In this document: positions 16,342-38,444 of the stretch, one piece after another
How positions within the stretch are numbered: the first letter of the stretch is position 1
How the letters are laid out: every line of letters begins with the position of its first letter
DNA from: an uncultured archaeon
Lineage (GTDB): Archaea > Iainarchaeota > Iainarchaeia > Iainarchaeales > JAAZKV01
Length of the DNA stretch: 64,000 nt
NCBI GenBank assembly: GCA_964534045.1
Contig: CAZHNO010000003.1
Location: 37,323 to 101,322, forward strand
Direction of reading: 5' to 3'
Notes under the pieces: model-generated
The model's input: the letters and a program-made list of their open reading frames with translations, nothing else
Database searches by the model: none
What the model was told of the DNA's origin: nothing
Translations under genes and position numbers: made by a program

Positions 16342-16399
16342 TTAAAAAACACCCCCGTTTTTTAAAGTTAAAAAATCTCTGATTTTTTTTACCATTATC

Positions 16400-18460: not shown

Positions 18461-18715
18461 CAGGCATCACAATTTTTTCAACGTGAGATAAATAAGTTTA
18501 GGGAGTTTATAAAGCTTACTTACTTTTTACGTAGAAAACAAAAAGCAAACCAAAAATTATTGAAACTAAGAAAAAAAATAAAAAAAATCACACAAAAACT
18601 CGGACTTGATTCAGAAAACAAAAAAAAATATTGTAAAAAGTTTGGAATTACTTTTAGTTATTGTAAAAAAAATATTTTTCTAAAAAGTTTTAAATTTAAT
18701 TTGTAATTTTCCAAA

Positions 18716-20074
18716 TTATTCAAGTTTTAAATTTGGATATAATGGAAAATTCTTACACAATTTTTTAACTTCTTCTCTTATTTCTTTCACTCGCACATTT
18801 GATTTAAGCTCTTGTTTGAATTTTTTGATTGCTTCTTTTCTCTGTTCAGGATTAGATGGCATTTCAAGCGGAGCGAACAATTTTATTATTTCTGAAATCC
18901 AATTTCCTATTTGAAGCATTTCTTTTTCTTTCATTCCCCTTGTTGTGAGAGATGGCGTACCTAAACGAATGCCTGAAGGATAGAACGGAGAGAAGGGTTC
19001 TTTTGGAATAGTATTTTTATTCACAGTTATTCCTGCTTCATCTAATGCTTCTTGAACAAACAAGCCTTTTCCATTACCAAAAGAAGTTAGGTCAATTAGA
19101 CAAAGGTGATTATCTGTTCCATTTGAAACTAATTTTATTCCATTTTCTATTAAAGAAGAGGCAAGTGCCTTTGAATTAAGAACAATTTGCTTTGCATAAT
19201 CTTTGAACTCTGGCTCAAGGGCTTCTTTGAAAGCAACTGCTTTACCTGCGTTAATGTGATCATGTGGGCCACCTTGCAAGCCGGGAAAAACAGCCGAATC
19301 AATTTTCTTAGCCAAATCTACATCTTTATCCAAACCTTTTTGTGTAACCATTATCATTCCACCACGAGGGCCTCGTAAAGTTTTGTGAGTTGTGCTTGTT
19401 ACAATGTGAGCAAATGGAACTGGAGAAGAATGAACTTCGCCAACTATTAAACCGGCGATGTGAGCAATATCACAAGCAAAATATGCTCCGACTTCGTCAG
19501 CAATCTTTGACATCTCTTCAAAAGGAAATTCTCTTGGATATGCTGTTGCTCCACACCAAATTAGTTTTGGTTTGTGCTTTCTAGCAAGAAAAGCAACCTC
19601 TTCCAAGTCAATATAACCATCATCTTTCACATGATATGGGATTGAGTTATAGAACTGGCCTGTAGAACTAACTTTGAAGCCGTGAGTTAAATGCCCACCA
19701 TCACTTAAATTCAAACCCATTATTGTGTCGCCTGGTTTGCAACAAGCCAAGTAAACAGCTAAATTTGCTGGAGAGCCTGAATAAGGTTGAATGTTTGCGT
19801 GTGGAACAGAGAAAAGTTTTTTTGCTCTTTCAACTGCAATGTCTTCCATTTGGTCAACAAATTTTTGCCCACCATAATATCTTTTGTGAGAATAACCTTC
19901 AGAATATTTATTATTAAAAATCGAACCCATTGCCTGTTGAACAGCAAAAGAAATATTGTTTTCAGAAGGAATCATTTCCAAGCCCTCTTCTTCTCTCTGT
20001 AATTCATTTTTTATTGTATCAAAAATCTCTTTGTCTTTTTCACTTAACTTTTGCATAAAATCTTTTTCACTCAT
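18716..20074 (-). CDS. glyA: Serine hydroxymethyltransferase, bacterial type
   Basis: MIPSEN, YSEGY..KRYYGG, GGHLTHG, TTHKTLRGPRGG (PLP Lys), GIRLGTP. Confidence 0.97.
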   Translation of the reverse strand: MSEKDFMQKLSEKDKEIFDTIKNELQREEEGLEMIPSENNISFAVQQAMGSIFNNKYSEGYSHKRYYGGQKFVDQMEDIAVERAKKLFSVPHANIQPYSGSPANLAVYLACCKPGDTIMGLNLSDGGHLTHGFKVSSTGQFYNSIPYHVKDDGYIDLEEVAFLARKHKPKLIWCGATAYPREFPFEEMSKIADEVGAYFACDIAHIAGLIVGEVHSSPVPFAHIVTSTTHKTLRGPRGGMIMVTQKGLDKDVDLAKKIDSAVFPGLQGGPHDHINAGKAVAFKEALEPEFKDYAKQIVLNSKALASSLIENGIKLVSNGTDNHLCLIDLTSFGNGKGLFVQEALDEAGITVNKNTIPKEPFSPFYPSGIRLGTPSLTTRGMKEKEMLQIGNWISEIIKLFAPLEMPSNPEQRKEAIKKFKQELKSNVRVKEIREEVKKLCKNFPLYPNLKLE

Positions 20075-20079
20075 AAAAA

Positions 20080-20748
20080 TCAACTTTCTAAAACTTCTTT
20101 TACTTTTTCATAAATCATTTCGTGAATTTTTTCAATTGAGAGCAATGAATTATTTTCAACACAATCTAATTTTGTCCAGTTTAATTTTGGAATTGTTTTA
20201 TCAAATTCTTTTGTATAATTTTTTTGAAATTCAATATCTGCTTCATGCTGATCGCGTTTTTGTCCTTTCTTATATGCCTCAGCATTTTCATTATTATCAA
20301 GTAATTTCATTGAATACTCAACAGGAACATATAATACAAGAGTTAAATCTGGTTGGGGCAAACGAGAAGAAACATTATTTATCCAATTCCAAATCTCTTC
20401 TTTTTTTTCTTCAGGAGTTAAGGCAACTTGATAAGTAAGTGTTGAAGAAAAGTAACGAGAAAGAAGAATTATCTTTCCCCCATCTAAAGCTTTTTCCATT
20501 TGCCATTTTGACTCATAAAAATCTGTCATATAAAGCATCGCAATAAATTCTGGTGGAATATCTTCTTTTTTTCCATATTCTCCCATTAAATAAGCATCAA
20601 CAACTTTTCCAAACGAAATATCGTGTTTTGGAAAATGCATGTGCAAAACTTCTTCGCCTTCTTTTTCTAATCTTTCTTTTAACAATTTTAACTGAGTGCT
20701 CTTTCCTGAGCTATCTCCGCCTTCTAAAACTATTAGCTTTCCTTTCAT
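20080..20748 (-). CDS. tmk: Thymidylate kinase (paralog 2)
   Basis: IVLEGGDSSGKSTQ P-loop, SRYFSSTLTYQ, PDL, DQHEAD. Confidence 0.85.
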   Translation of the reverse strand: MKGKLIVLEGGDSSGKSTQLKLLKERLEKEGEEVLHMHFPKHDISFGKVVDAYLMGEYGKKEDIPPEFIAMLYMTDFYESKWQMEKALDGGKIILLSRYFSSTLTYQVALTPEEKKEEIWNWINNVSSRLPQPDLTLVLYVPVEYSMKLLDNNENAEAYKKGQKRDQHEADIEFQKNYTKEFDKTIPKLNWTKLDCVENNSLLSIEKIHEMIYEKVKEVLES

Positions 20749-20797
20749 AAAAATAAATTTTTTAATTAATTATTTTTTAATTCTTTTAAATTATTTT

Positions 20798-21361
20798 TCA
20801 CTTTACTTTTGCTAAATTACCTTCGTTATTTTTTGATTCATATTTTACTTGATATTGAACTTTATCATCCAACATATCTTTTTCTCGCCAATCATTTACC
20901 CATTCATCAACGCTATGTGCAACAACCTCTCCATTTTCATTATTTCCAACAAATCTTTTAATTCCAGAATTAATAATCATTTTTTTGCACATAAAACAAG
21001 GATAAGCTAAAACAAATTTGTCTCCTTCTTCTGAGCGTTTTACAAAATAAAGGTAAATTGTTCCATCTAAAAGAGAAACTCCTGCACGAGCAGCATTAAT
21101 AATTGCATTTTGCTCAGCATGAACCGAACGACAAATTTCATATCTCTGTCCTGATGGAATGCCCAATTCTCTCCTTAAACAATTTCCTCTTTCAAAACAA
21201 TCTTTTGTGTGGCGTGGAGCACCTATGTAACCAGTGGCAATTATCTGATCGTCACGAACAATTATTGCTCCGCCTTTAACAGACATACAAGTGCTTCTTT
21301 CAGCAACTTCTTTTGCAATATTCCAATAATAAACATCCTTGCCAGGACGATAATTTGACAT
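20798..21361 (-). CDS. dCMP deaminase (ComEB family)
   Basis: RSTC, ATGY.G.P, HAEQNAII, PCFMCKKMIINSGI; GGGTG RBS before ATG 21361. Confidence 0.9.
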   Translation of the reverse strand: MSNYRPGKDVYYWNIAKEVAERSTCMSVKGGAIIVRDDQIIATGYIGAPRHTKDCFERGNCLRRELGIPSGQRYEICRSVHAEQNAIINAARAGVSLLDGTIYLYFVKRSEEGDKFVLAYPCFMCKKMIINSGIKRFVGNNENGEVVAHSVDEWVNDWREKDMLDDKVQYQVKYESKNNEGNLAKVK

Positions 21362-21462
21362 TTCAACACCCAAAAAAATATAGTGCAAGTTGTTATAAAT
21401 ATAATTCACAAAAAACAATTTTAAGCAAATTTGTTTAAATACTTTTAAAATTATAAATAACT

Positions 21463-22083
21463 ATGCAAATTGACTCTATTTACTTAGTAGTTCATCCACT
21501 TTTTAGACAAGCACAAATGAAAGACTCAAAAGAAAGACGTGCTGTAACTCAAAATGAAATGGATAACTATGGTCGAATGATTCTTGAAGCAAAGAAAAAT
21601 GCAAATTCGCTAATAATTTTTGTCCCAACAACAACTAAAAATCCAGAAACTAGAAAAAAACAAGCCAGATTAATAAAATTTGCTAGAAAGACACTTGGAA
21701 AAAGAGTAATTAGTCTGTCAACTGAATTTGGTTTTCGAGAACACCGCCGTTTAAAAGACATGGTTGACAGTCGACCAGAAGACACACAACGAATACAAGC
21801 CGCAATAAAAGAAGCCACAAAAAAGTTATCCCAATTTGAATTCACAAAAAAACCAACAATTATTTCATCTGGACAATTTCTTGGCCAGTGTGTTATGAAT
21901 GGCTCTTTTAACCTAGAATATATTCTAAAATTAAGAGGCTCAAAACCAAATATCTCTTTTCAAAAAGAGTCAAAAACGCTATCTGATACAGTTGTTTTAC
22001 TCGGAAAGAATCGCTCAATGATTGCATTTAGGAAATGGCGACAAAAAACTTTTGGAAAAAAAGCTAAAAAGCACTTATCATAG
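21463..22083 (+). CDS. Basic hypothetical protein, possibly isochorismatase-like fold
   Basis: IYLVVHPLF and SGQFLGQCV segments; K/R-rich C-terminus; fold guess by eye. Confidence 0.6.
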   Translation: MQIDSIYLVVHPLFRQAQMKDSKERRAVTQNEMDNYGRMILEAKKNANSLIIFVPTTTKNPETRKKQARLIKFARKTLGKRVISLSTEFGFREHRRLKDMVDSRPEDTQRIQAAIKEATKKLSQFEFTKKPTIISSGQFLGQCVMNGSFNLEYILKLRGSKPNISFQKESKTLSDTVVLLGKNRSMIAFRKWRQKTFGKKAKKHLS

Positions 22084-22146
22084 GACACTTTTTTGCTTTG
22101 AGCTGTGAATTAATAAGAATTTTGCAAATTAATTTTAATGATATAA

Positions 22147-23475
22147 ATGGAAATTACACTTACTGAAATTAACAAAAATGAGCTACAAAAATTAAATGAT
22201 TTCTTAGAAAATAATGAATTAAATGTTCAAGAGTTTAATGAACTGACAAAAACAATTAACTTTTCTTTTTCTGTAGAAAATTGTTCACGACTTTTAAGTC
22301 ACCACATCTGTGAATCTTTGGATTCATACACTCAACAAAGTCAAAGATATGTAAAAATGGGCAATGAAGCATTTGTAATTCCAAAAGAAATTGAAAAAAG
22401 TGATTTGAAAGAGGAGTATGAAAAATTAAATTTGGATTTATTTAAATTCTATAATAAAATAACTCAAATAAAAGAGGGATTTGCTGGAAGGAAAGCAAGT
22501 GAACAAGATTATGTTTATGGAATAAAAATAGAAGATGGAAGGTATGTTCTTCCATTAGCAACAAAAACCAACATAATAGTAACAATGAACCTATCAAAAA
22601 CAATTAACTTTTTCAATACAATAAAAAAAGCAAAAATAAATGAAGGCGAAGAGTTACTTGAAAAAATAAAAGAACTTCTTGGGAAAAATATTAGCAAATT
22701 TATTGAAAAAAATTTAAGTGAATTTGATTCTGGCAAAGTGAATGATTTTGTTCAAGAATATTTTAACAAAATTGATTCGAAAAACAATTGCGCTTTGTTA
22801 AACAAATTTGAAGAGCCATTAATTAGAAGTGGTTTGGGAGCATTAACGTCAACAAATGAAATTGGGGCGTCAAAAATAAAAGAAAAATGGGATGAAAAAA
22901 ATGAAGCCATTGAAAAAGCAAAGGCTGTTACTGAAAGAGTAATTGGCTATGGACACACATCCATAATTGAGCACGCGAGGACTAATTTTGGAATGCAAAT
23001 GTCATTAACTTGTTATCACCAATTTGAAAGACATAGACTACCAAACAATATTAGAGAAGAGTTTTCAAACTTACCTTTAGACAGAGAAGTAATTATGCCC
23101 CCCAGTGTTGAAAAAAATCAAGAAATTAACAAAGAATTCATGGAAAAAGTCCAAATGGTAAAAGAATTTAGAAAAAAAATGAATGAAAAGAATTTGCCTC
23201 AAGAATATTTGCTACTGAATTGTGATATTTTGAAATTGATTAGTTCAACAAATGCTAGAATTGATAACGAAATTTTGGCAGAAAGAACATGTAATAATGC
23301 TCAATGGGAAATAAGAGATTTATACACAAAAAAATTAGAACAATTACAAAAAACAGCCAAAGTATTATATGATAAAGCTGGGCCACCATGCACAAAAGGC
23401 ACTTGCCCTGAAGGCGCACTAAGTTGTGGAAAAATAATTGAAGTTAGAAAAAAATTTGGTTACTTTGGAAAATAA
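22147..23475 (+). CDS. thyX: FAD-dependent thymidylate synthase, tandem two-domain form
   Basis: N-domain SRLLSHH...SYTQQSQRYV and EDGRYVLPLATKT; C-domain GHTSIIEH, HQFERHR, RTCNNAQWEIR, GPPC..G.CPEG..SCG. Confidence 0.85.
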   Translation: MEITLTEINKNELQKLNDFLENNELNVQEFNELTKTINFSFSVENCSRLLSHHICESLDSYTQQSQRYVKMGNEAFVIPKEIEKSDLKEEYEKLNLDLFKFYNKITQIKEGFAGRKASEQDYVYGIKIEDGRYVLPLATKTNIIVTMNLSKTINFFNTIKKAKINEGEELLEKIKELLGKNISKFIEKNLSEFDSGKVNDFVQEYFNKIDSKNNCALLNKFEEPLIRSGLGALTSTNEIGASKIKEKWDEKNEAIEKAKAVTERVIGYGHTSIIEHARTNFGMQMSLTCYHQFERHRLPNNIREEFSNLPLDREVIMPPSVEKNQEINKEFMEKVQMVKEFRKKMNEKNLPQEYLLLNCDILKLISSTNARIDNEILAERTCNNAQWEIRDLYTKKLEQLQKTAKVLYDKAGPPCTKGTCPEGALSCGKIIEVRKKFGYFGK

Positions 23476-23925: not shown

Positions 23926-24187
23926 AATTATTAAAATGCACGAACAATTAGTCGTGTTGGGTTAAAAAAAAAACAATTTTCTCACCAAAAATTGTCTTAC
24001 TTTATAACATAAATTAGAAAGATTAAAAAAGCTAACTCAACTTTTTTGAAAAAAAACAAAAAAAAACAACACCGGCATGGAACTCAAAACTAATTTAAAA
24101 ACAAGCCAACAATAATTATACTATTGTGTCAGAGAATTAATTCTCGCCAAGAATAATTCTAAACGGCACAAAAAGAAGGTGATAAAA

Positions 24188-25138
24188 ATGGCGAAAAAAA
24201 TAGAAACAATAACTGATTTGCCCGGGGTGGGTGAAACTGCAGCAAAAAAATTATTTGATGCAGGATATAAAACACTAGAACAAATGGCTGTAGCAAGCCC
24301 AATGGAATTAAAAGAAATTGCTGGTTTAGGGGACGGCACAGCTGACAAAGCAATAAAAGCAGCAAGAGATGCTCTTGAAATGGGCTTTGAGAGTGCTGAT
24401 GTATTAGCTGAAAAAAGAAAACTCGTTGGAAGAATAACAACCGGCTCAACAGAACTAGATACTTTAATTGGGGGCGGAATAGAAACACAATCAATTACTG
24501 AAGTTTATGGAAAAATGGCTTCGGGAAAAAGTCAATGGTGCTTTCAAACCGCAGTAACCGTTCAACTCCCAAAAGAATTGGGTGGCTTAGAAGGAGCTTG
24601 CTTGTATATTGATTCTGAAAATTCATTCAGACCAGAAAGAGTAATACAAATCGCAAAAAAATTAGAATTGGATGTTGATTCAGTTTTGAAAAACATACTT
24701 GTTGCAAGAGCATACAATGCGGATCATCAAATGTTATTAGCAGAAAAAGCATCAGACATGATAAAAGAAAAAAATATTAAATTATTAATTGTTGATTCAC
24801 TAATGGCACAATTCAGAGCAGAATATGTTGGAAGAGGAACACTTTCAGAGAGACAACAAAAAATAAACAAACACTTGAGAACGCTACAAAAACTTGCAGA
24901 AATGTATAATATTGCAGTGCTTGTAACTAACCAAGTAATGTCAAGACCAGATATTTTGTTTGGGGACCCCACAGAACCTGTTGGGGGAAATATTGTTGGG
25001 CACGCAACAAAAACTCGTCTATACTTGAGAAAAAGCAAGGATGATAAAAGAGTTGCAAAACTAGTTGACTCACCATCACTGCCTGATGGAGAAGCACTGT
25101 ATAGAATAACAGAACACGGAATATTAGACGTTGAATAA
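24188..25138 (+). CDS. radA: DNA repair and recombination protein RadA
   Basis: HhH N-domain DLPGVG, GKMASGKSQ Walker A, LLIVDS Walker B, FRAEYVGRGTLSERQQK, GGNIVGH; AAGGTGA RBS. Confidence 0.98.
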   Translation: MAKKIETITDLPGVGETAAKKLFDAGYKTLEQMAVASPMELKEIAGLGDGTADKAIKAARDALEMGFESADVLAEKRKLVGRITTGSTELDTLIGGGIETQSITEVYGKMASGKSQWCFQTAVTVQLPKELGGLEGACLYIDSENSFRPERVIQIAKKLELDVDSVLKNILVARAYNADHQMLLAEKASDMIKEKNIKLLIVDSLMAQFRAEYVGRGTLSERQQKINKHLRTLQKLAEMYNIAVLVTNQVMSRPDILFGDPTEPVGGNIVGHATKTRLYLRKSKDDKRVAKLVDSPSLPDGEALYRITEHGILDVE

Positions 25139-25211: not shown

Positions 25212-25847
25212 ATGAATGGCTTCAAATTAACAAAAAAAATTGGTGAAGTTGAATTATGGAAGCATCCGGCTGGACACAAATTTATTCGATTTAGTGATTC
25301 CTCTCTTAGTGGAAAAGAAATTCCTCATCCAAAAAAAATACCACAAATTGATTATCCTGGAGTAAATTTTGTTACAACACTTGAAACAGAAGTCAGTGGT
25401 AAAAAGCAACAAATTTGGGCAAAAGAAGTTGGCGGAAAAGCAGATGATATATTAAAAATATTTTTTACAAACCCAAAAAATCGTTATAGAAAAAATACAC
25501 ACCATGCAAGAACATTGCGACAAATTAGGGCAGCTGGTTTTCAAGCACCAGAACCACTAGGAATATTATATCCGGCTAGCGGAAAACCACTAATGCTAAC
25601 AACACACATAAATGGAAGTCCTTGTGAAGATAGAATAGAAAGAAGGCTACTTGTTGCCCAATTAAAATTAGCAGGATTACACCCATCAGATTTCCACAAA
25701 AAAAATATTTTCAAAACAGAAAAAGGTTTAGCAATAATTGATGCATCAAGGTTTGGGCCAGTAAACAAAGAAAAATTACTTGCGACAATAAAAAGACAAA
25801 AGCAAATACAACAACAAAAACTAGCAAAAAAAAGAAAATTACTTTAA
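25212..25847 (+). CDS. Protein kinase-like (RIO/Kdo/APH-like) hypothetical protein
   Basis: IWAKE, HPSDFHKKNIF (catalytic loop), AIIDAS (Mg-binding) motifs; basic C-terminus. Confidence 0.65.
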   Translation: MNGFKLTKKIGEVELWKHPAGHKFIRFSDSSLSGKEIPHPKKIPQIDYPGVNFVTTLETEVSGKKQQIWAKEVGGKADDILKIFFTNPKNRYRKNTHHARTLRQIRAAGFQAPEPLGILYPASGKPLMLTTHINGSPCEDRIERRLLVAQLKLAGLHPSDFHKKNIFKTEKGLAIIDASRFGPVNKEKLLATIKRQKQIQQQKLAKKRKLL

Positions 25848-26966
25848 CAAATAATCTTTTTCAAACTCTTTTTTGAATTTTATGAAATTGTTTTCTTGAA
25901 TTGCTTTTCTAGAATTTTTTATTAAATTTTGAATAAAATAAATATTGTGATAAGAAAGCAAAATGTGTGCATTCTGTTCATAAGTTTTGAACAAATGGTG
26001 TAAATATGCGCGAGAATGATTTTTGCAAACAAAACAATCACATTCTTTATCAAGTGAAGAAAAATCTTCTTTGTTTTTTGCATTAGCAATTTCTATTGCT
26101 CCGCTAGAAGTAAAAACTTTTCCATGGCGAGCCATTCTGGTTGGATATGCTGAATCAAAACAATCAGCCCCTTGTTCAATTGCTGAAAGGATTTCTAATG
26201 GCGAACCAATACCCATTACATACGTTGGATTATTTTCTGGCAAAACTTCCTTTACAGCTTTAATTATTCTAATCATATCTTCTTGCGCTTCGCCAATACC
26301 AAAACCACCCAATGCAACACCATCAAAACCAATTTTTGTTAAAGCAAGAGCACAATTCTGCCTAATGTCAGCATGATTTCCACCTTGTGCAATACCAAAA
26401 ATTAATTGCTTTGAATTGGTTTTATTTTTACTAGAATCATGTGTGTTTTTACATCTTTGAGCCCATTCAATAGTGCGAATTGCTGAATCTAAATAATCAT
26501 TTCTGTTTTTTCCAAATAAAGGTTGGTGGTCAAGACACATTGCAACATCTGAACCCAAAACATTTTGTATTTCAATAGCTTTTTCGGGAGTAATTAATTC
26601 TTGTGATTTATCAAATGGATTTTTCAAATAAACTCCTTTATCTGTTACTCTTGGAGAAAAATGATCAAGTATTAATTGAAAACCACCCGAGTCAGTAAAA
26701 AGCGCTTTATCCCAAGACATAAAACTATGTAAGCCACCTGCTTTTTCTATTACTTGTAAACCTGGCTTTAAATAATTAATAAAAGCATTAGAAATCAAAC
26801 AATCAAAACCCATTTCTTTCAATTCTGAATTAAGAATATTTTTTACTGCACCCTTGGTTGCAACTGGCATAAAAAAAGGAGTTTTTATTTCCCCATGTGC
26901 TGTTTTTAAAATTCCTGTGCGTGCGGAGCAACTAGAATCTTTATGTTTAATTTCAAAACAAGACAT
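25839..26966 (-). CDS. tgt: tRNA-guanine transglycosylase, bacterial (queuine-pathway) type
   Basis: TPFFMPVAT, TDSGGFQ, GIAQGG, GG.G.GE, YVMGIG, FDS..PTR.AR, CDCFVC..HSRAYLHHL Zn site. Confidence 0.95.
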   Translation of the reverse strand: MSCFEIKHKDSSCSARTGILKTAHGEIKTPFFMPVATKGAVKNILNSELKEMGFDCLISNAFINYLKPGLQVIEKAGGLHSFMSWDKALFTDSGGFQLILDHFSPRVTDKGVYLKNPFDKSQELITPEKAIEIQNVLGSDVAMCLDHQPLFGKNRNDYLDSAIRTIEWAQRCKNTHDSSKNKTNSKQLIFGIAQGGNHADIRQNCALALTKIGFDGVALGGFGIGEAQEDMIRIIKAVKEVLPENNPTYVMGIGSPLEILSAIEQGADCFDSAYPTRMARHGKVFTSSGAIEIANAKNKEDFSSLDKECDCFVCKNHSRAYLHHLFKTYEQNAHILLSYHNIYFIQNLIKNSRKAIQENNFIKFKKEFEKDYLLK

Positions 26967-27091
26967 ATAATAAATTATCAAAAAAAGAATTTAAAAAAGC
27001 AAGTTAGCTTTCTGGTTATTGAAAATAGCCAAATTCTTCGTATCAGCCAAGTGAAATTGGCTTTTTAAAAGGTTTTGACTAGAAATTATTT

Positions 27092-27359
27092 TGGACTAGA
27101 CTGGGCCGCCAGCGGTGGCTTGTTACCAGAAATCCGCTTTATGCTGGAGTCGAAGCTGAAGAAGAGGTTTTAATGCTAATGCATTTCGCCAAAGGCAAAT
27201 GTCGAAGCTCTGTCCTTACAGGCCCTTTTATGAAACGAACCCCGCCAGACTCGGAAGAGAGCAACGGTAATTTTATTAGAGAGCGCTGAAGGGTAACGGA
27301 GTGGAGTTTGTGTTTGGAAAGAGTGCACTAACTAGAAATCCATTCTTCAGCACGTCCAC
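27092..27359 (+). ncRNA. ffs: Signal recognition particle RNA (7S), about 268 nt
   Basis: Helix 1 TGGAC/GTCCA; Alu domain GACT/AGTC with UGU motif and AGCGG/CCGCT loop-loop complement; helix 5 CTGAAGAA/TTCTTCAG; helix 8 CCCGCCAG-ACTC-GGAA-GAG-AGCAACGG. Confidence 0.93.
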
Positions 27360-27447
27360 TTGATGTGGTGCTATTACAAATAGCACTTAACCACGTTTCG
27401 GAACCGCCCTACGAAATGGGCGAATCCATTCTTCAGTGTGTCCACTT
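27337..27447 (+). repeat. Direct repeat of the SRP RNA 3' end (25 nt, 22/25 identical)
   Basis: AATCCATTCTTCAGCACGTCCACTT (27337-27361) vs AATCCATTCTTCAGTGTGTCCACTT (27423-27447). Confidence 0.9.
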
Positions 27448-27680: not shown

Positions 27681-27863
27681 ATGGTTTTCGAAAAGAAAAT
27701 GTCTGTAAAAGATCTTATTGAACAAATGCGACAAGAATTACAGAGAGATAGGTCAACACCAGCAAAAAAAGGTGCAAAAGCAAAATCTGTAAAAAAGGCT
27801 ACAAAAAAGAAGCCTGCTAAAAAAAAGGCAAAAAAAGCTGTGAAGAAAAAAAAGAAAATTTAA
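27681..27863 (+). CDS. Small protein with histone H1-like Lys/Ala/Pro tail
   Basis: GGAGG RBS; helical N-half then TPAKKGAKAKSVKKATKKKPAKKKAKKAVKKKKKI. Confidence 0.75.
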   Translation: MVFEKKMSVKDLIEQMRQELQRDRSTPAKKGAKAKSVKKATKKKPAKKKAKKAVKKKKKI

Positions 27864-27867
27864 AAAA

Positions 27868-28173
27868 TTATTTAGAAGTGCTCTTTTGCACTTCTTTTTC
27901 CAATTTCTTCAACACATCCTGAACAGTTTCAATTAACTGCCAATTGGTTTCGGACGCAACAAACACTTTGTTATTCAATAATAACTTCGCTTTGACTTCA
28001 TGCTGCTTTCTAAGCCCACCTTTAGCATATTCTTTAACTGATAAAGTAAGCTTGTCTGCCCCTAACAAAGGCACTTTTGAAAAAAATCTCTCAAAATTCT
28101 TTACAAAAATTGCATTATCTATCTCATCTACTTTCGGAAACTTGATTAACTCTAAATTAGAAAAACGCTCCAA
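27868..28173 (-). CDS. HPF/RaiA-like ribosome hibernation factor (putative)
   Basis: TTG start with GGGGGAG RBS; beta-alpha-beta-beta-beta-alpha pattern ending FVASETNWQLIETVQDVLKKLEKEV, as in HPF-like modules; judged by eye. Confidence 0.65.
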   Translation of the reverse strand: MERFSNLELIKFPKVDEIDNAIFVKNFERFFSKVPLLGADKLTLSVKEYAKGGLRKQHEVKAKLLLNNKVFVASETNWQLIETVQDVLKKLEKEVQKSTSK

Positions 28174-28206
28174 ATTGACTCCCCCCTAACTTAAATAAAA
28201 ATACTA

Positions 28207-28228
28207 AGAAGTTATTAAAATAACTTCT
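28207..28228. promoter_or_regulatory. Perfect palindrome, candidate bidirectional BRE-TATA or operator
   Basis: AGAAGTTATT-AA-AATAACTTCT in the 69-bp gap between the divergent hpf-like and rsh genes. Confidence 0.7.
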
Positions 28229-28242
28229 ACTAAAAGTAAATT

Positions 28243-30033
28243 ATGTCTAACCTAGTTTTAAATGATGAAACTCTTGAGAGTGAAAAAAAAATTAAAAAAG
28301 CATTTGAAATAATTCAAAAAAGTGGTGAAAAAGAAATACTTTTACGGGCAAAGAGAATTTTGCTTGTTTTAAACAAAAAAAATATGGGTGCAACAACCAC
28401 TATTTCTGCAATACTTTACCCCCTAGTTGAAAAACAAAAAATTAGTCTTGAAGAAATAAATAATACATTTGGACAAGAAGTAATGTTAATCGCAAAAGAA
28501 TGTGTTAGAATAGAAGAAATTCTAAATGCAAATTACAAAAAAATACCCCCTGAAACTTTAAGTGCATTAATACTCTCAATTTCAACCGATTTAAGAACAA
28601 TAATTATTAAGATTGCTGATATTACAGATCAATTAAAAAATAATTCTAGTATTGATAAAAATAAATTTATTTTTTTTGCAAAAAATATATATTCCCCACT
28701 AACTGCAAAGCTAGGAATTTCTGATCTTGGCTGGCAAATTGCGGATTATTGTTTCAAACTAGAAAACCCACAAGGATATGAAAAAATAAAAAAATTGGTA
28801 AATAAAACTCGAGAAGAAAGAGAAAAACTAATTGAAGATATAAGAATTGAAATAGAAAAATTTTTGAGTGGAAAAATAAAAGTACATGTTTTTGGGCGCC
28901 CAAAAAACTTTTACTCAATTCATGAAAAATTAAAAAAAGTATCTTTCAAAGAAATGCATGACATTTATGGAATAAGAATAATTTGCAACAAAGAAAGAGA
29001 ATGCTATGAAATTTTAGGAAATATACATTCAAAATATAATTTCATTCCAAGCGCATTTGATGATTATATTGCCAAAGAAGGAAAGGGGCTTGGGAAAAAA
29101 GGCTATCAAAGCATACACACTGCAATAATAAGAAATAATGACGTTATTGAAATACAAATAAGAACTTGGCAACAACACCTAAAAACAGAATCTAGTATTT
29201 ACTGGGAATATAAAAGATTACGAAAAGATACTACTCTTGACAAATCACTAAGTTGGGAAAGGCAATTGGTGGAGTGGCAAAAAAGTATTGGGGAAGAAAA
29301 TAAAAACAAAAAAATAATTAGTGGAAAATTATTTGTTTTCACTCCAAAAAATGAAGTCATTACTCTTCCAAATAATTCAAGCGCGCTCGATTTTGCGTTT
29401 GCTGTTCATTCAGATATTGGAAAAAGAGTAAAACAAGCAAAAATTAATGGTGAACTAGTTCCAATAGAAACTAAATTAAAAAACTTGGACAAAGTTGAAA
29501 TAATTACTGATCAAAAAACAAAAATCAGGCCAGATTGGTTGAATATGGTGGTTAGTGAAAGAGCAAAAACAAAAATCAAAAGACACTTTGGATTAAAAAG
29601 TGCAATTGTAAAAAAGCAACATGCATCAGAACAAATTACAAAAAAAATAAAACTTGCTGAATGCTGTCATCCTCTGCCAGGGGAAGATGTAATTGGAATA
29701 AAAACCACTAAAAGAAAAATAATAATTCATAAACGAGATTGTAAAAACATAGCAAACATTTCTAAAAATAAAAAAATAGAAATATATTTTGAAAAGGAAA
29801 GAGGAAAAACAAAAATTAAAGTTTTGGCAATTGATAGAATTGGTTTACTGGCTGAAATTCTTGAAGAAATAAAAAGAAATAAAGCAACATTAAGTTCAAC
29901 AAACTTTAATATAAAAAAATCTGGGTATGTTGAAGCAATATTTGAACTTGAAATAAAAAATATAAATGCGCTTGAGAGATTAATTAATAACTTAGAACAA
30001 ATTCCATCAATACAAAGCGTTGATAGGGAGTAA
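28243..30033 (+). CDS. rsh: Long RelA/SpoT homolog (degenerate HD, synthetase, TGS, ZFD, ACT)
   Basis: GRPKNFYSIHEK, DIYGIR, DYIAK...GYQSIHT, EIQIRT, FVFTPKNEVITLP...DFAFAVHSDIG, AECCHPLPGEDVIG, C-terminal ACT (AIDRIGLLAEI). Confidence 0.95.
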   Translation: MSNLVLNDETLESEKKIKKAFEIIQKSGEKEILLRAKRILLVLNKKNMGATTTISAILYPLVEKQKISLEEINNTFGQEVMLIAKECVRIEEILNANYKKIPPETLSALILSISTDLRTIIIKIADITDQLKNNSSIDKNKFIFFAKNIYSPLTAKLGISDLGWQIADYCFKLENPQGYEKIKKLVNKTREEREKLIEDIRIEIEKFLSGKIKVHVFGRPKNFYSIHEKLKKVSFKEMHDIYGIRIICNKERECYEILGNIHSKYNFIPSAFDDYIAKEGKGLGKKGYQSIHTAIIRNNDVIEIQIRTWQQHLKTESSIYWEYKRLRKDTTLDKSLSWERQLVEWQKSIGEENKNKKIISGKLFVFTPKNEVITLPNNSSALDFAFAVHSDIGKRVKQAKINGELVPIETKLKNLDKVEIITDQKTKIRPDWLNMVVSERAKTKIKRHFGLKSAIVKKQHASEQITKKIKLAECCHPLPGEDVIGIKTTKRKIIIHKRDCKNIANISKNKKIEIYFEKERGKTKIKVLAIDRIGLLAEILEEIKRNKATLSSTNFNIKKSGYVEAIFELEIKNINALERLINNLEQIPSIQSVDRE

Positions 30034-30087: not shown

Positions 30088-31296
30088 ATGAATTTTAAAA
30101 TATCAATCACAATTACAGTTTTATTAATCTTATTATCGTTTGTTTCTGCAGCAGCACCACAAACAACACAATTTAATTATTATCCAAGCCCTGCTGTGCC
30201 TGGAGATATCATAACAATATTAATACAAGTCGAAAATTTAGAAAACTCCTCACAAAGTGATGTAAAAGTAAAAATTGATAATATATATCCATTTAGTGTA
30301 GAAGAAGAAAGTGAAAAAGAAATTGGGAATATGGGGCCATATGCAAAGGCATTGGTTCAATTTAAAATATATGTTTCTCCAAGTGCAGAAAACAACACAT
30401 ATACAATTCCAATAACAATAACCTCAAAACAAGAGCCAATTGGTAAAACAACAAACCAATCAATATTGATAAGTGGCAAAGAACCAATTGTAAAAGTCAT
30501 AAATATATCAGATAGCCGATTAGTGCCTGGACAAGAAAAAGAAATTATTTTTGAATTACAAAATATTGGAACAAGCACCGCATATGATATAATATTTGAA
30601 TTAGAGGAAGATAGAACTGTTGTGGCAACAGGGGCTGTTGTTGAAAGAGAAATAACTCCCTTAGGATCAGCATTAGGATATATTGAAAAATTAGAGCCAA
30701 AAGAAAAAAGTAGTGCGCAAGTAAAACTAAGTGTGAACAGAGAAGCTAGTCTAAAAAATTACACTTTACCAATTACAGTTTCATACAGAAATAGTTCAGG
30801 AACAAGAACTAGCGAAACATCATACATTGGTTTCAAAATTGCTGGAGAAGTAAATTTAGATTTTGCACTAAAAGAAAATGTATATTTAATTGCTGGACAA
30901 ACCGAAACAATAACTTTGGAAATGTTCAACAAAGGTGCTGGAAAAGCAGAATTTACAATAGTAAATCTTGATGTCTGGTTTGGTTCAATTGATAAAGAAA
31001 AACAATTCATTGGTTCGCTAGAACCAAACGATGTAGATTCATTCAAAACTACTATTACTGTTTTTGATGACATTGAGACAACTGATACAAACATTAAAGC
31101 TTTTGTTGAATACCAAGACACCGATGCAAAAATAAAAACAATTGTGGTTGATATTCCCATAAAAGTTTATTCAGCTGCAGATGGTGCAGTGACAATGGGA
31201 ATAAATCCATTCGCAGGAATAATTAACATAATAATATTAGCAATAATTGTGTTCGTTGGATGGAAAGTTTACAAAAAGTTCAAAAACAAAAATTAA
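30088..31296 (+). CDS. COG1361-like S-layer domain protein
   Basis: Signal peptide, repeated Ig-like segments (PGQEKEIIFELQNIG, IGSLEPND), C-terminal TM with basic tail. Confidence 0.8.
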   Translation: MNFKISITITVLLILLSFVSAAAPQTTQFNYYPSPAVPGDIITILIQVENLENSSQSDVKVKIDNIYPFSVEEESEKEIGNMGPYAKALVQFKIYVSPSAENNTYTIPITITSKQEPIGKTTNQSILISGKEPIVKVINISDSRLVPGQEKEIIFELQNIGTSTAYDIIFELEEDRTVVATGAVVEREITPLGSALGYIEKLEPKEKSSAQVKLSVNREASLKNYTLPITVSYRNSSGTRTSETSYIGFKIAGEVNLDFALKENVYLIAGQTETITLEMFNKGAGKAEFTIVNLDVWFGSIDKEKQFIGSLEPNDVDSFKTTITVFDDIETTDTNIKAFVEYQDTDAKIKTIVVDIPIKVYSAADGAVTMGINPFAGIINIIILAIIVFVGWKVYKKFKNKN

Positions 31297-31322
31297 TAAA
31301 CAAGCAAACAATATTTATAATC

Positions 31323-32057
31323 ATGAATAGATTAAAAACGGGAATCGGCGGTTTTGATCAATTAATAGAAGGTGGCTTCCCAGAAGGAAGAAGCTTCTTG
31401 ATTAGTGGAGGAACCGGAACAGGAAAAACTATTTTCTCAATGCAATACCTTATCAAGGGTGTTGAAGATGATGAACCAGGAATATATTTAACTCTTGATG
31501 AAAGACCAGACTTGATTAGAGAAGATATGTTAAGATTTGGGTGGAATTTAAGGCAATATGAAGATGCAAAAAAACTAATGATTATAGATGGAACAATTGC
31601 AAAAATTGGAATTCCAAGTGACGAAGAATTTTCATTACCAGCAACAGGATTTGATTTAGATAAATTATTATTAGAATTAATGAAGGCTATAAAAAAAATT
31701 GGTGCAAAAAGAGTTGTTATTGATTCGATTCCTGCACTTGGAATGAATTTTGAAAGTGAACACGATATAAGAAAAGCAGTGTTGAAAATGGTTTATTTAC
31801 TTTCAAGAGCAGGAGTAACAACAGTACTCACAACAGAAATAGACCCAGAATCTAAAAAAGTTGGAAAATATGGTGTTGAAGAATTTGTTAGTGACGGAGT
31901 AATAGTTTTACACTACATGGGAATTGGAACACAAAGCAATAGAACTTTACACATAAGAAAAATGAGAGCAACAAAACATTCAGAAGATTTACACCCCTTA
32001 GAAATAACTGAGTTTGGAATAAAAGTTCATAATGTTGAAGATGATTATGAAGTATAA
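31323..32057 (+). CDS. KaiC/RAD55-like single-domain RecA-superfamily ATPase
   Basis: RLKTGIGGFD.LIEGG.P, GGTGTGKT, RVVIDSI, EEFVSDGVI.L, IRKMRATKHS. Confidence 0.9.
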   Translation: MNRLKTGIGGFDQLIEGGFPEGRSFLISGGTGTGKTIFSMQYLIKGVEDDEPGIYLTLDERPDLIREDMLRFGWNLRQYEDAKKLMIIDGTIAKIGIPSDEEFSLPATGFDLDKLLLELMKAIKKIGAKRVVIDSIPALGMNFESEHDIRKAVLKMVYLLSRAGVTTVLTTEIDPESKKVGKYGVEEFVSDGVIVLHYMGIGTQSNRTLHIRKMRATKHSEDLHPLEITEFGIKVHNVEDDYEV

Positions 32058-35176: not shown

Positions 35177-35251
35177 AGTGGGGTAGGGCAGCCTGGAGTG
35201 CCCGTCGGGCTCATAACCCGAAGGTCGGAGGTTCAAATCCTTTCCCCACTA
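35177..35251 (+). tRNA. Initiator tRNA-Met(CAT)
   Basis: A1-U72 acceptor AGTGGGG/CCCCACT, three G-C pairs in anticodon stem TCGGG-CTCATAA-CCCGA. Confidence 0.96.
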
Positions 35252-35664
35252 CTATTCTAATCAAAAAACAACCAAATAATAAGAAAAATCAAATACTCAA
35301 AAAAAGTCATTTTTGAAACTAATTATAATTTAAGCAAAAACAAGCAATTTAACAAGTATCACACTAACAAACAAACAGATAGTTTGTGCAAATCTATAAA
35401 TACCCCAATAGTTCCACTAATCACTTTATACAGAAAATCACTCATTTCAAGAATTTTTAAAAAAATTAAAAATCTATTCAATAATTTACATATCACTTTT
35501 AAATAAAATTTGCTAATTAAGACAAACTAGTAATTACTACTAAAAAGATATTAAAAAAATAAGCGCACTTTAACAAAAAGTAGCTTATTTTGGTAATTAC
35601 CTTTCATTACTATAATTAAGCTTCATTACCGTAAGTCTTTTAAGTAATTACGCTCAATATAATA

Positions 35665-37580: not shown

Positions 37581-38444
37581 TTATAAATTGTCTAATGGGC
37601 TTTCAACTTTTTTTAATTGTTCACTTGCTACATTTGTGTAAATTTGTGTGGTGTTAAGGCTTGAGTGTCCAAGTAAACTTTGTATATATCTAATATTTGT
37701 TCCTGATTCTAATAAGTGAGTAGCATATGAGTGTCTTAATGAGTGTGGAGTAACATGTTTTGTAATACCTGCTTGTTTAGCCGCCTTTCTAACAATTCTT
37801 TGTATTGTGTCTGTAGATAATTGTTTTCCGTTTTTTTTAGAAAACACATAATCACTTTTAACTTTTTTTTTGTTTAAATATTTTTTCAAACCTTTTATCC
37901 ATTCTTTTGAAAGAATTATTAATCTGTCTTTGTTTCCCTTTCCAGAACGTATCATTGCGGTTCTTTCTTTCAAATTTATATCATCAACTTTTAATTTAAC
38001 AACTTCACTTACTCTACAACCAGAACCATACATAAATTGTAACATTAATCTATTTCTTCCAAACCTTGTGGCATGAAATAATTCACGTATTTCATCTTTG
38101 TTTAAAACTTTTGGTAATGACTTTGCTTTTTTTGGAGTTTTTATTTCATCAACAATATTTTTTTTCAAATATTCTTTAAAAAAGTATTTCATTGCGGCAT
38201 GTATTAAACCTAAAGTAGCATTTGAACATCCATTTTCTTTTTTTTGAGCTAAAAATCCTATCAAATCTCGGCTTGTTATTTCATTTGGATTTTTATCAAT
38301 AAATTTTAGTAGTTCTTTAATGTACATAAGGTACATTTTGAGTGTTTTACTTGAATAACCCGCAATTATTAACTCTTGTTTGAATTCTTTAATCTCTCTT
38401 GCAAATTTTTCTTCATTTGCTTTTGCAGTATAATCATTATCCAT
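37581..38444 (-). CDS. xerA: Tyrosine recombinase XerA
   Basis: SAM-like N-domain; GCRVSE, GKGNKDR, TPHSLRHSYATHLLE, LLGHSSLNTTQIYT. Confidence 0.9.
   Translation of the reverse strand: MDNDYTAKANEEKFAREIKEFKQELIIAGYSSKTLKMYLMYIKELLKFIDKNPNEITSRDLIGFLAQKKENGCSNATLGLIHAAMKYFFKEYLKKNIVDEIKTPKKAKSLPKVLNKDEIRELFHATRFGRNRLMLQFMYGSGCRVSEVVKLKVDDINLKERTAMIRSGKGNKDRLIILSKEWIKGLKKYLNKKKVKSDYVFSKKNGKQLSTDTIQRIVRKAAKQAGITKHVTPHSLRHSYATHLLESGTNIRYIQSLLGHSSLNTTQIYTNVASEQLKKVESPLDNL

Follow-up and report, generated by a model that had tools for sequence, protein, structure and literature searches.

A candidate stringent-response and ribosome-hibernation gene pair in an uncultured archaeon: a RelA-like RSH divergent from an HPF-like gene

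A gene for a small HPF/RaiA-like protein and a gene for a long, RelA-like RSH were found head-to-head in the DNA of an uncultured archaeon, with a short spacer carrying a conserved palindrome between them. Both genes are real, and the explanation considered best, which is held with a confidence that is about evenly balanced, is that they would be expressed as one divergent unit of two ribosome-directed starvation functions. Functional coupling of alarmone synthesis to ribosome storage is plausible from the comparisons described below.

Archaea were once listed as having no long RSHs (Atkinson 2011). (p)ppGpp-like alarmones were not detected in archaea according to the AHA preprint (PMC12934967), and a 2021 study says the same of (p)ppGpp. 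Moreover, how archaeal ribosomes hibernate was elucidated as recently as 2025–2026. The original prediction regarded long RSHs as rare in archaea, which does not hold for the lineage of the present DNA: a DPANN survey gives RelA/SpoT in 69% of Diapherotrites MAGs and predicts its acquisition from Bacteria (Li et al. 2021, mSystems, PMC8407392). That survey concerns the same gene family and lineage, and gives its presence and predicted bacterial origin; the domain state, the neighbourhood and the HPF linkage come from the present analysis. Both gene families had thus already appeared in DPANN surveys (2021, 2026). As for the linkage between them, which the original prediction did not know to be described, no published description was found.

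Gene organization of the locus

The window, namely, the whole 64-kb stretch of DNA that was analysed, was considered archaeal because it carries an SRP RNA of archaeal type (27089–27361), RadA and an archaeal-type TGT. Checking the ORF coordinates in the window placed the 101-aa ORF and the 596-aa ORF head-to-head with 69 bp between them, exactly as had been predicted (Table 1). The small ORF belongs to a family with 24 close homologs and 192 representatives, and the RSH to one with >700 homologs. As both families are conserved, neither ORF is a chance ORF.

Table 1. Positions of the two genes, their domains and the associated sequence elements in the window
Feature	Position	Strand	Remarks
Small ORF, HPF/RaiA-like	27868-28173	minus	101 aa, TTG start, pI 9.5
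Hairpin AGAAGTGC-N6-GCACTTCT	27874-27895	minus	last codons of the HPF-like CDS, then T-rich tail; terminator-like
Divergent intergenic control region	28174-28242	no strand	69 bp
Shine-Dalgarno-like GGGGGGAG	28179-28186	minus	5 nt upstream of the HPF-like TTG
Palindrome AGAAGTTATTAAAATAACTTCT	28207-28228	no strand	22 bp, TATA-like core
Long RSH, RelA-like	28243-30033	plus	596 aa, ATG start
Pseudo-hydrolase (HD_4) domain	28318-28719	plus	HD dyad replaced by Y59-P60, ED pair lost
Synthetase (RelA_SpoT) domain	28894-29217	plus	catalytic residues intact, acidic AFDD motif
TGS domain	29332-29508	plus	Pfam match; H389 invariant, aligns with E. coli RelA H432 (HIHSDVGHR)
Zinc-finger (ZFD/RIS) domain	29653-29742	plus	CC-x20-H-x3-C
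C-terminal ACT/RRM domain	29806-30027	plus	Pfam ACT_4 E 3.6e-16

The RSH alone was matched when bacterial Rel domain HMMs were applied to the 64-kb window, and neither a second synthetase nor a separate (p)ppGpp hydrolase was found there. Nothing alarmone-related was found by Pfam among 20 flanking genes, which include those for dNTP metabolism, RPA, TFE, Trm56, an integrase and MscS.

Fold and type of the small protein

The small ORF had been proposed to be HPF/RaiA-like, and it does fold as HPF in the prediction. The AF2 model of the 101-aa protein (pLDDT 89.4) consists of E7-10, H17-33, E41-51, E54-66, E69-77 and H80-99, and its best 35 PDB fold matches in Foldseek were all HPF/YfiA/pY/RaiA/RafH proteins (TM 0.6–0.74, probability 1.0). 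As modelled, therefore, the protein has the HPF/RaiA fold. The type, on the other hand, had to be corrected. The ORF scored below threshold with both Pfam Ribosomal_S30AE (PF02482; 18.0 bits, cutoff 23.7, E 0.005) and TIGR00741 (17.9 bits, cutoff 40.9, E 0.003), which marks it as a distant, archaeal-type member rather than a bacterial yfiA equivalog; its relative at locus L034 reached 22.9 bits. Sequence and profile searches against the PDB gave marginal matches (HPF E 0.4–0.5), and homology was accordingly established by fold and by profile–profile comparison.

The profile of the small-ORF family found many proteins of approximately 370 aa with the domain at residues 270–370 (hmmsearch), and CBS domains lie N-terminal to the HPF domain in those sampled (Pfam). 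The small-ORF family matched this CBS-HPF (HibA-type) fusion family with an hhalign probability of 99.75% and E 2.8e-27. The fusion family, in turn, matched PDB 9sr9_H (E 1e-68), a 392-aa chain in ribosome entries that is equal in length to P. abyssi HibA (392 aa; HibA paper). With a sequence taken as that of E. coli HPF, the small ORF gave hhalign E 0.002 and a probability of only 14%. From these profiles, the small gene is assigned to the archaeal HibA C-terminal-domain type, not to bacterial-type HPF. The window protein is an HPF domain only, without the N-terminal four-CBS module, and hence is not HibA proper; its 101 aa and missing CBS module fit the stand-alone derivative class of PMC13324472. 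Stand-alone HPF/RaiA-like proteins occur mostly in DPANN and Nitrososphaerales and arise by loss of the CBS module (PMC13324472), and those of DPANN were reported earlier (PMC13324472; PMC12934967).

Two motifs, FPxxDExD (residues 12–19) and KxYxKGGxR (47–55), are conserved and common to the CBS-HPF fusion family. By position, they appear to lie at the sites of the beta1-alpha1 and beta2-beta3 insertions of HibA, both of which are archaeal-specific and make the contacts with uS19 and uS12 (HibA paper). In HibA, it is the C-terminal domain that anchors the protein in the 30S channel, and inhibition of translation requires it (HibA paper). The conserved motifs at these apparent contact sites, the strong profile homology to the anchoring domain and the best 35 fold matches, all of them ribosome-bound hibernation factors, argue against a different role for the small protein, for example as a constitutive factor that accompanies or assembles the small subunit or as a general RNA-binding protein. 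Its scores, which fall short of the curated cutoffs for bacterial HPF, would suit such a role, as would the weaker fold matches at ranks 43–50 (Foldseek, PDB), which include dsRBD proteins. Furthermore, the function of stand-alone archaeal HPF/RaiA-like proteins rests on homology, and the authors of the HibA paper failed to obtain the isolated C-terminal domain as soluble protein. A role outside hibernation was considered very improbable.

Compared with known hibernation factors, the window protein has the HPF/RaiA-type domain of HibA/AHA (PMC13324472; PMC12934967) but not their adenylate-sensing CBS module, which leaves any sensing of energy to another component. In addition, its gene has an RSH gene as its head-to-head partner, and no such pairing was found in the hibernation-factor literature examined. 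Bacterial HPF/RaiA (YfiA)/pY proteins have the same fold and, like the window protein, a size of approximately 100 aa and a basic pI, whereas the sequence similarity to them is marginal. Unlike bacterial HPF, the window protein would, by analogy, bind an archaeal (eukaryote-like) small subunit, and it is without the dimerisation domain of long HPF.

Domains and catalytic state of the RSH

The prediction of an RSH with synthetase, TGS, ZFD and ACT motifs was borne out. Pfam domains above the gathering thresholds occur in the order HD_4 (residues 26–159), RelA_SpoT (218–325), TGS (364–422) and ACT_4 (522–595), and the zinc-finger residues C474, C475, H496 and C500 are invariant across 54 RSH homologs. 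The zinc finger aligns to CCQPIPGD...H..C of RelA and has a precomputed match to PF28438 RelA_RIS. The protein matched TIGR00691 (E 5e-118), and its AF2 model (pLDDT 81) matched RelA, SpoT and Rel structurally; the nearest solved relative by both sequence (E 8e-82) and fold was E. coli RelA (5IQR).

In the case of the hydrolase domain, the alignment showed ILYPLVEK in the window RSH, LLHDvxEDT in bacterial Rel and LLFPLADA in E. coli RelA. Among the archaeal-type RSHs examined, only the most divergent one (P0137, locus L036) still has the ED pair, and the HD dyad is kept in only some members. In the synthetase domain, R219, K221, K229, D240, Y288, H292, E303 and Q305 are invariant in the 54 homologs, and the synthetase residues align to G251-R-P-K, D275 and EIQIRT of RelA. 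The acidic motif is AFDD in the window RSH and xFDD across the close archaeal clade, compared with RFKD in nine of ten bacterial neighbours; it belongs to the RelA-type EXDD class, with Ala instead of Glu in the first position. The linker from TGS to ZFD has a median of 57 residues against approximately 151 in bacterial Rel. Judged by alignment, the RSH is therefore without approximately 95 residues of the alpha-helical domain and keeps the other long-RSH domains in order. Since the hydrolase motif is degenerate and these alpha-helical residues are missing, the RSH is RelA-like and probably acts as a synthetase only. If so, a hydrolase would be required elsewhere in the genome, as none was found in the 64-kb window.

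Whether such an enzyme would make (p)ppGpp has to be considered, since it could use another nucleotide, e.g. (p)ppApp, or another substrate, or be mainly a ribosome- or tRNA-binding regulator, in which case alarmone signalling would play no part in the link to HPF. In the window subclade, four residues are inserted in the G-loop region for the substrate (EGKGLGKKG), with residues 279–283 modelled at low confidence, and this insertion, the missing alpha-helical domain and the hydrolase partner not seen in the window are compatible with a changed activity. However, the invariant synthetase residues include Y288, the Tyr that stacks on guanine, and two catalytic residues, D240 and E303, and both sequence and fold match best to bona fide RelA, Rel and SpoT. 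Haloferax and Sulfolobus, the archaea that were tested for (p)ppGpp, moreover, are not reported to encode a long RSH. An activity other than (p)ppGpp synthesis was thus regarded as very improbable, and a synthetase of the stringent-response type was retained as the prediction.

E. coli RelA (5IQR, 5KPV) also has a degenerate hydrolase motif (FP, compared with YP in the window RSH), and its acidic motif is EFDD where the window RSH has AFDD; the TGS His (H432), the zinc finger and ACT are common to both. The window RSH differs in being approximately 150 aa shorter, with a shorter N-terminus and the alpha-helical residues between TGS and ZFD absent, in the G-loop insertion of its subclade, and in belonging to an archaeal genome, where it would work on archaeal ribosomes. 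On an NJ tree, which is rough and has six Rel sequences as its bacterial side, the earliest-branching RSH of the archaeal clade (L036) keeps HD..ED. The RelA-like state probably arose independently for this reason, which suggests independent degeneration of the hydrolase rather than RelA orthology.

Conservation of the pairing

The pairing occurs at related loci as well. The RSH and HPF-like genes are directly adjacent and divergent in the window, at L001, L003, L005 and L010, and at 14 of the 16 informative metagenome loci, that is, at approximately 19 loci. A pattern scan of genome contigs with the single RSH protein confirmed three loci (L010–L012), the peptide patterns being too specific. 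The locus scan with the alignment of the close HPF-like family reaches the close family only, and the broad stand-alone alignment was too divergent for patterns. The linkage extends to lineages in which the RSH is 35–38% identical, and on the NJ tree it covers the window clade and most of the sister clade. In L006, L023 and probably L018, ahcY is inserted on the RSH side, and in L007 and L034, TIM or CorA-TIM is inserted on the HPF side, with the divergent layout kept in all cases. At L035, a 377-aa CBS + HPF-like (HibA-type) gene occupies the equivalent position.

These observations have to be weighed against descent as the reason for the neighbourhood. In that reading, the bacterial RSH landed once beside a resident HibA/HPF gene in a stable RadA...KaiC block whose order was not disrupted afterwards, the two genes act and are regulated independently, and the palindrome in the spacer is the RSH core promoter. 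Indeed, at the same loci synteny extends over the whole block RadA-TGT-SRP RNA-Krich-HPFL-RSH-CARDB-KaiC, and the HPFL-RSH adjacency is conserved no better than Krich-HPFL, RSH-CARDB or CARDB-KaiC. Because these other adjacencies are equally conserved, functional coupling does not follow from synteny alone. The tree is compatible with the linkage having arisen once, the RSH-KaiC adjacency is older than RSH-HPFL, and the tolerated insertions of ahcY, TIM and CorA, by separating the genes, indicate that the pair does not depend on a common core promoter. In addition, an HPF-domain gene is absent from the flank of four distant archaeal RSH loci (L008, L009, L011 and L036), and the stand-alone HPF/RaiA-like proteins of Nitrososphaerales show no sign of a link to RSH. 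The small divergent genes upstream of RSH in L009 were considered as a partner and rejected, being unrelated to HPF or CBS.

Against mere descent, the linkage persists even at 35–38% RSH identity, and the divergent orientation was kept after insertions on either side. L035 retains the pair although its left context differs and RadA is not found within 8 kb, this being the only case of retention with changed outer context. The strictly conserved and fully symmetric 22-bp palindrome also exceeds the needs of a one-directional TATA box. Independent neighbours are accordingly a serious alternative, which we consider possible but short of probable, and the divergent unit remains our preferred reading.

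Spacer and promoter elements

The RSH ATG and the HPF-like start lie approximately 25 nt and approximately 44 nt, respectively, from the centre of the palindrome, which is upstream of both. The sequence is unique in the window, where 0 occurrences are expected by chance. It is identical at 22 of 22 positions in L003/L004/L015, where the flanks are 41–57% and the CDS 67–76% identical. The exact palindrome is confined to the subclade of the window, L003/4 and L015. The spacer is 61–96 bp in 11 other loci, a TATA-like TTAAAA(T/A)AA lies 22–32 nt upstream of the RSH start in the loci compared, and longer spacers seem to hold two separate TATA-like boxes. On the HPF-like side, GGAGG or GGTGG is found at the position of the Shine-Dalgarno-like element in all 12 loci compared. 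No structured RNA was found in the spacer by Rfam. A sigma-70 promoter scan was set aside as not meaningful for an archaeon, with fewer sites than in shuffled sequence; the reported hairpin was kept.

From its sequence, the palindrome may be either a bidirectional BRE-TATA-BRE core promoter or an operator. An archaeal precedent is known from Pyrococcus furiosus, in which one TATA serves two start sites 49–50 bp apart (PMC6640164). As in the 69-bp spacer, a symmetric A/T-rich element stands midway between the divergent starts. Bidirectional transcription from symmetric archaeal TATA boxes is, however, often non-functional noise, yielding mostly non-coding antisense RNA in P. furiosus (PMC6640164), and this accords with the two genes being regulated independently. 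In the window, by contrast, both directions would serve protein-coding genes, from predicted start sites.

The hairpin at the end of the HPF-like CDS repeats the AGAAGT-N10-ACTTCT outline of the palindrome in the spacer, and this motif occurs only twice in the 64-kb window. It is also present in L003/4, L010, L013 and L033. A second operator was considered for the hairpin copy. This copy falls in codons for EVxKSTS, a conserved peptide at the C-terminus, and may be explained by coding constraint.

Proposed explanation

In the preferred explanation, the HPF-like protein would, by homology with HibA, lodge in the mRNA/tRNA channel of the small subunit and thereby silence and protect idle ribosomes, while an RSH of bacterial ancestry would make (p)ppGpp and still dock on ribosomes. 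That the RSH is most likely synthetase-only yet ribosome-docking follows from the retained synthetase, TGS His, zinc finger and ACT together with the degenerate hydrolase. A single bidirectional BRE-TATA-BRE promoter would give a leaderless RSH mRNA in one direction and, in the other, an HPF-like mRNA with a leader of approximately 19 nt containing the Shine-Dalgarno. In this explanation, the linkage is ancestral to a large Iainarchaeota-type clade, and it appears to have existed before the HPF gene lost its CBS sensor module. Co-regulation of the two genes and an effect of (p)ppGpp on hibernation are what we infer from this arrangement.

The same two players, a ribosome-bound alarmone synthetase and an HPF-fold ribosome-parking factor, operate in bacterial stringent control. 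In bacteria, rmf, hpf and raiA are induced in a (p)ppGpp-dependent manner, the coupling being through (p)ppGpp acting on transcription. To our knowledge, the bacterial alarmone synthetase and hibernation-factor genes are not neighbours, and we know of neither an archaeal RNA polymerase that responds to (p)ppGpp nor a (p)ppGpp receptor in archaea. Compared with the bacterial system, the evidence of coupling here comes down to physical linkage and a shared control region. A more far-reaching version was also formulated, in which HibA lost its CBS module and a horizontally acquired, hydrolase-dead RelA-like enzyme took over the regulatory role under one symmetric BRE-TATA-BRE promoter. The pair would then be the first archaeal stringent-response-like module, with starvation sensing and ribosome parking wired by gene linkage and not by (p)ppGpp acting on RNA polymerase. 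This version, taken as a whole, is unlikely.

Implications

The locus offers a specific, clonable pair, namely, a predicted synthetase-only RSH with ribosome- and tRNA-sensing domains and an HPF-domain gene, with a strictly conserved palindrome as the control element between them and a linkage that traces back to a full-length HibA-type gene. As a candidate for a starvation response in archaea, it is a concrete, if unproven, pair in a tiny DPANN-type archaeon. If the coupling is false, two families described only recently are still cleanly annotated, and the syntenic block is well defined. If it is true, it would show how, in symbionts with reduced genomes, a bacterial stress sensor was grafted onto an archaeal device for shutting down translation.

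Organization of the locus

Two ORFs, encoding a RelA-like RSH and a small HPF-like protein, had originally been predicted to lie head-to-head in this window, and both were found exactly where the prediction placed them, 69 bp apart. The window is AT-rich (GC approximately 30%) and archaeal, and the close homologs that carry names belong to MAGs labelled Candidatus Iainarchaeum, ainarchaeum, or Diapherotrites, which makes an Iainarchaeota-type DPANN origin likely. The features of the locus and its surroundings are summarized in the table.

Features of the window and of related loci (window positions unless a locus is named)
Feature	Position	Strand	Remarks
RPA	13627-14895		
DNA-precursor gene cluster	15499-23475		
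RadA	24179-25138		
tRNA-guanine transglycosylase (TGT)	25839-26981		archaeal-type
SRP RNA	27089-27361		archaeal
Lysine-rich ORF	27681-27863	+	60 aa; convergent with HPF-like gene, stop codons 4 bp apart
HPF-like ORF	27868-28173	-	101 aa; TTG start
AGAAGT-N10-ACTTCT, copy 2	27874-27895	-	hairpin in last HPF-like codons (EVQKSTS), then T-rich tail
22-bp palindrome, AGAAGTTATTAAAATAACTTCT	28207-28228		spacer; is AGAAGT-N10-ACTTCT copy 1 (candidate promoter palindrome)
RSH ORF	28243-30033	+	596 aa; head-to-head with HPF-like ORF
G-loop region insertion	29077-29103		RSH residues ~279-287
CARDB/NPCBM_assoc surface-protein ORF	30088-31296		
KaiC-like ATPase	31260-32057	+	single-domain; 265 aa as listed
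Intron-containing tRNA (presumed)	1366-1516	+	151-nt Rfam match
tRNA-Met	35177-35252		
Tyrosine recombinase	37581-38444	-	phage-integrase family
Very large ORF	45001-48786	-	1261 aa
Very large ORF	56371-64000	+	>2543 aa; runs off window end
S-adenosylhomocysteine hydrolase gene	L006 2673-3938; L023 6646-7911; probably L018 1-933		inserted, one subclade; co-directional with RSH
HibA-type gene	L035 5908-7041		377 aa

The listed start of the KaiC-like ORF overlapped the end of the CARDB/NPCBM_assoc ORF by 37 bp (31260-31296). As its homologs were 244-249 aa long, the true start is probably a downstream ATG. Homologs of the lysine-rich ORF were present in most related loci, at a constant position beside the ribosome factor gene, and in locus L018 its N-terminus (MVFEKKMSVKDLIEQMR) recurred unchanged (17 of 17 residues); its best family match, Ribosomal_60s (E 0.07), was weak and below assignment. 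Elsewhere in the window, the 151-nt tRNA match was not called by ARAGORN, and the tyrosine recombinase gene, approximately 2.3 kb from tRNA-Met, may mark the edge of an integrated element. The DNA-precursor cluster comprised NrdD (anaerobic ribonucleotide reductase) with an ATP-cone, a radical-SAM activase, SHMT, thymidylate kinase, dCMP deaminase, and ThyX (442 aa, with two Thy1 stretches), and was adjoined by RPA and RadA.

Domains and motifs of the RSH

The RSH exceeded the Pfam thresholds for HD_4, RelA_SpoT, TGS, and ACT_4, and TIGR00691 matched it with an E of 5e-118. By sequence and by fold, the latter compared using an AF2 model (pLDDT 81), the closest solved relatives were ribosome-bound E. 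coli RelA, followed by SpoT and Rel. Among 54 homologs, the synthetase residues R219, K221, K229, D240, Y288, H292, E303, and Q305 were invariant, as were TGS H389, which aligns with RelA H432, and the zinc-finger residues C474, C475, H496, and C500. The predicted domain set was thus confirmed, with Pfam supporting synthetase, TGS, and ACT, and residue invariance supporting the zinc finger.

The hydrolase site was degenerate, with ILYPLVEK in place of the LLHDvxEDT of bacterial Rel, whereas E. coli RelA has LLFPLADA at this motif. The ED pair was gone from all aligned archaeal-type members except the most divergent, P0137 (the RSH protein of locus L036), and the HD dyad was kept by only some of the members aligned. 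The monofunctional/bifunctional motif was acidic, AFDD in the window RSH and xFDD in its close clade, and read RFKD in nine of ten bacterial neighbours. The linker from TGS to the zinc finger had a median of 57 residues compared with approximately 151 in bacterial sequences, so that the alpha-helical domain lacks approximately 95 residues, and the N-terminus was also approximately 20 residues shorter. Judged from these motifs, the RSH is a RelA-like and probably synthetase-only enzyme that has kept its ribosome- and tRNA-sensing domains, and it would be catalytically active. A 4-residue insertion in the synthetase substrate G-loop region (KEGKGLGKKG compared with KP-K-xNG) was confined to the window's subclade, with pLDDT <50 at residues 279-283.

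Archaea were considered to be without long RSHs in 2011 (Atkinson 2011). RelA/SpoT homologs have since been reported from 69% of Diapherotrites MAGs and ascribed to bacterial transfer (PMC8407392).

Identity of the small protein

Sequence models by themselves were inconclusive for the small ORF. Pfam Ribosomal_S30AE scored 18 bits (cutoff 23.7, E 0.005), TIGR00741 yfiA gave an E of 0.003, and sequence searches of the PDB reached HPF at E ~0.4-0.5 at best. The protein nonetheless falls in a well-conserved family, invariant at F12, P13, D16, D19, Y49, G52, G53, Q57, H58, and W78, and in a KKLEKEV helix. When the structural model was searched against the PDB with Foldseek, the top 35 matches were HPF/YfiA/pY/RaiA/RafH chains (TM 0.6-0.74), most of them ribosome-bound.

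An exhaustive profile search with the family yielded 192 representative proteins, many of them approximately 370 aa long with the HPF-like domain at the C-terminus; in a sample of these, Pfam placed CBS domains N-terminal to it. When the stand-alone family was compared, profile to profile, with 30 CBS fusion proteins, the probability was 99.75% (E 2.8e-27), and the motifs FPxLDExD, KxYxKGGxR, and WxLLxxxQ were common to both. The profile comparison with E. coli HPF was weak (E 0.002, 14% probability). The fusion family matched PDB chain 9sr9_H (E 1e-68), which occurs in eight ribosome entries and whose 392 aa equal the length reported for the hibernation factor HibA of Pyrococcus abyssi (PMC13324472). 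Based on the fold matches and the profile homology to CBS fusions, the small ORF belongs, as a stand-alone protein, to the family of archaeal HibA/AHA C-terminal HPF/RaiA-like domains; structure-match and profile checks both agreed with the HPF-like identity first proposed.

HibA needs its C-terminal domain, which occupies the mRNA/tRNA channel of the 30S subunit, to inhibit translation, and two archaeal-specific insertions in this domain touch uS19 and uS12 (PMC13324472). Stand-alone HPF/RaiA-like proteins are found in 8% of archaea, chiefly DPANN and Nitrososphaerales, where they nest inside HibA clades and are ascribed to CBS-module loss (PMC13324472), and 926 HPF-only proteins were counted in the AHA preprint (PMC12934967). 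As such proteins are already published, the identity of the small gene is not new. The protein encoded here would likewise be expected to bind ribosomes.

Conservation of the gene pair

The pairing was recovered by synteny in related genomes, either adjacent and divergent or with inserted genes. Contigs found by protein identity carried the same divergent pair (L001/2, L003/4, L005, and L010), and scanning metagenomes with the family of the small ORF provided 21 further loci. The RSH was directly adjacent to the HPF-like gene and divergent in 14 of these; five were too short upstream to judge, and in two (L023 and probably L018), as in L006, the RSH was preceded by an inserted S-adenosylhomocysteine hydrolase gene. 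At three distant RSH loci (35-38% identity), an HPF-domain gene was still present on the divergent side as the last of a short gene string, namely, CorA-TIM-HPF-like in L007, TIM-HPF-like in L034, and, beside the 632-aa RSH of L035, TIM followed by a CBS and HPF-like gene of HibA type. Since TIM adjoins the HPF-domain gene in all three, an ancestral TIM-HibA string is suggested. No HPF-domain gene was found in the flanks of four other distant RSH loci (L008, L009, L011, and L036). On a rough NJ tree of the RSH, linkage extended over the window clade, included three of the four sister-clade members, and was absent from earlier branches. The adjacency is long-standing, and the simplest reading is that it arose once, probably beside a HibA-type gene of full length, and was then long retained, with the CBS module being lost in place.

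The two genes may also be neighbours by descent only, a reading to which a sizeable minority of the probability is assigned. The pair forms part of a block of RadA, TGT, SRP RNA, the lysine-rich ORF, the HPF-like gene, RSH, CARDB protein, and KaiC, and the other adjacencies of this block were conserved in the same loci. RadA was 3-5 kb away or nearer in most loci; in L035, where the HPF-domain gene was retained, the outer context on its side differed and RadA was absent within 8 kb. The RSH-KaiC adjacency reaches further back than that of RSH and the HPF-like gene: wherever an archaeal RSH locus had downstream sequence, a KaiC-like gene was close to the RSH, with L036 as the exception, and in the distant L007, L008, L009, and L034 it was directly downstream and co-directional. 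The conservation of the pairing is real, and by itself it does not demonstrate selection for coupling.

Control region between the two genes

The palindrome in the spacer occurred only once in 64 kb, where chance alone would give none. It was identical in L003/L004 and L015, though identity to the window there was 41-57% in the spacer flanks and 67-76% in the HPF-like coding sequence; the element is under strong constraint. In all three lineages, its centre preceded the RSH ATG by 25-27 nt and the HPF-like start by 43-45 nt. The other loci had a TTAAAA(T/A)AA box 22-32 nt ahead of the RSH start and lacked a Shine-Dalgarno sequence there; each HPF-like start was preceded by GGAGG, GGTGG, or GGGGGGAG. 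This geometry would fit a leaderless mRNA for the RSH and, for the HPF-like gene, an mRNA whose leader is approximately 19 nt long, with both predicted starts approximately 25 nt from one symmetric TATA element. In Pyrococcus furiosus, one BRE-TATA-BRE element directs two start sites approximately 50 bp apart, as found in vitro and by dRNA-seq (PMC6640164). Equally, the palindrome may serve some regulator as its operator instead of being a bidirectional promoter. Loci with longer spacers (78-96 bp) apparently have two TATA-like boxes, and where genes have been inserted, a common core promoter is impossible; therefore, the shared element characterizes the subclade rather than the entire family.

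The pattern AGAAGT-N10-ACTTCT occurred in exactly two copies in 64 kb, flanking the HPF-like gene. The two-site arrangement was repeated in L003/L004, and the 3' site alone was present in L010, L013, and L033. For the 3' hairpin site, the possible readings are a terminator, a second operator, and a simple result of coding constraint.

Possible coupling of alarmone synthesis and ribosome storage

The original prediction was that the pair may couple alarmone synthesis to ribosome storage. Both products would act on the ribosome under starvation: stalled ribosomes would be sensed by the RSH through TGS, ZFD, and ACT, leading to (p)ppGpp synthesis, and small subunits that are vacant would have their decoding and mRNA channel filled by the HPF-like protein. 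Within the subclade of the window, both genes are probably co-expressed from a single bidirectional promoter, and co-regulation of the two would be expected. No (p)ppGpp hydrolase or target was identified in the 64-kb window, and (p)ppGpp was not detected in archaea in published surveys (AHA preprint PMC12934967; a 2021 study). That the RSH and the HPF-like gene form a coupled unit is the most likely reading, at roughly even odds; apart from the descent-only reading, the remaining probability is split between doubt about the RSH product and doubt about the role of the small protein.

In the literature searched, no description was found of the conserved divergent pairing with an HPF-domain gene, including the HibA-type gene in L035, of the conserved palindrome, or of the motif state and reduced alpha-helical domain of this RelA-like RSH, consistent with the earlier view of the linkage as undescribed. 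The presence of both gene families in DPANN was already known. With this locus, the question of a stringent-like response in any archaeon becomes approachable by straightforward experiments on a defined gene pair.
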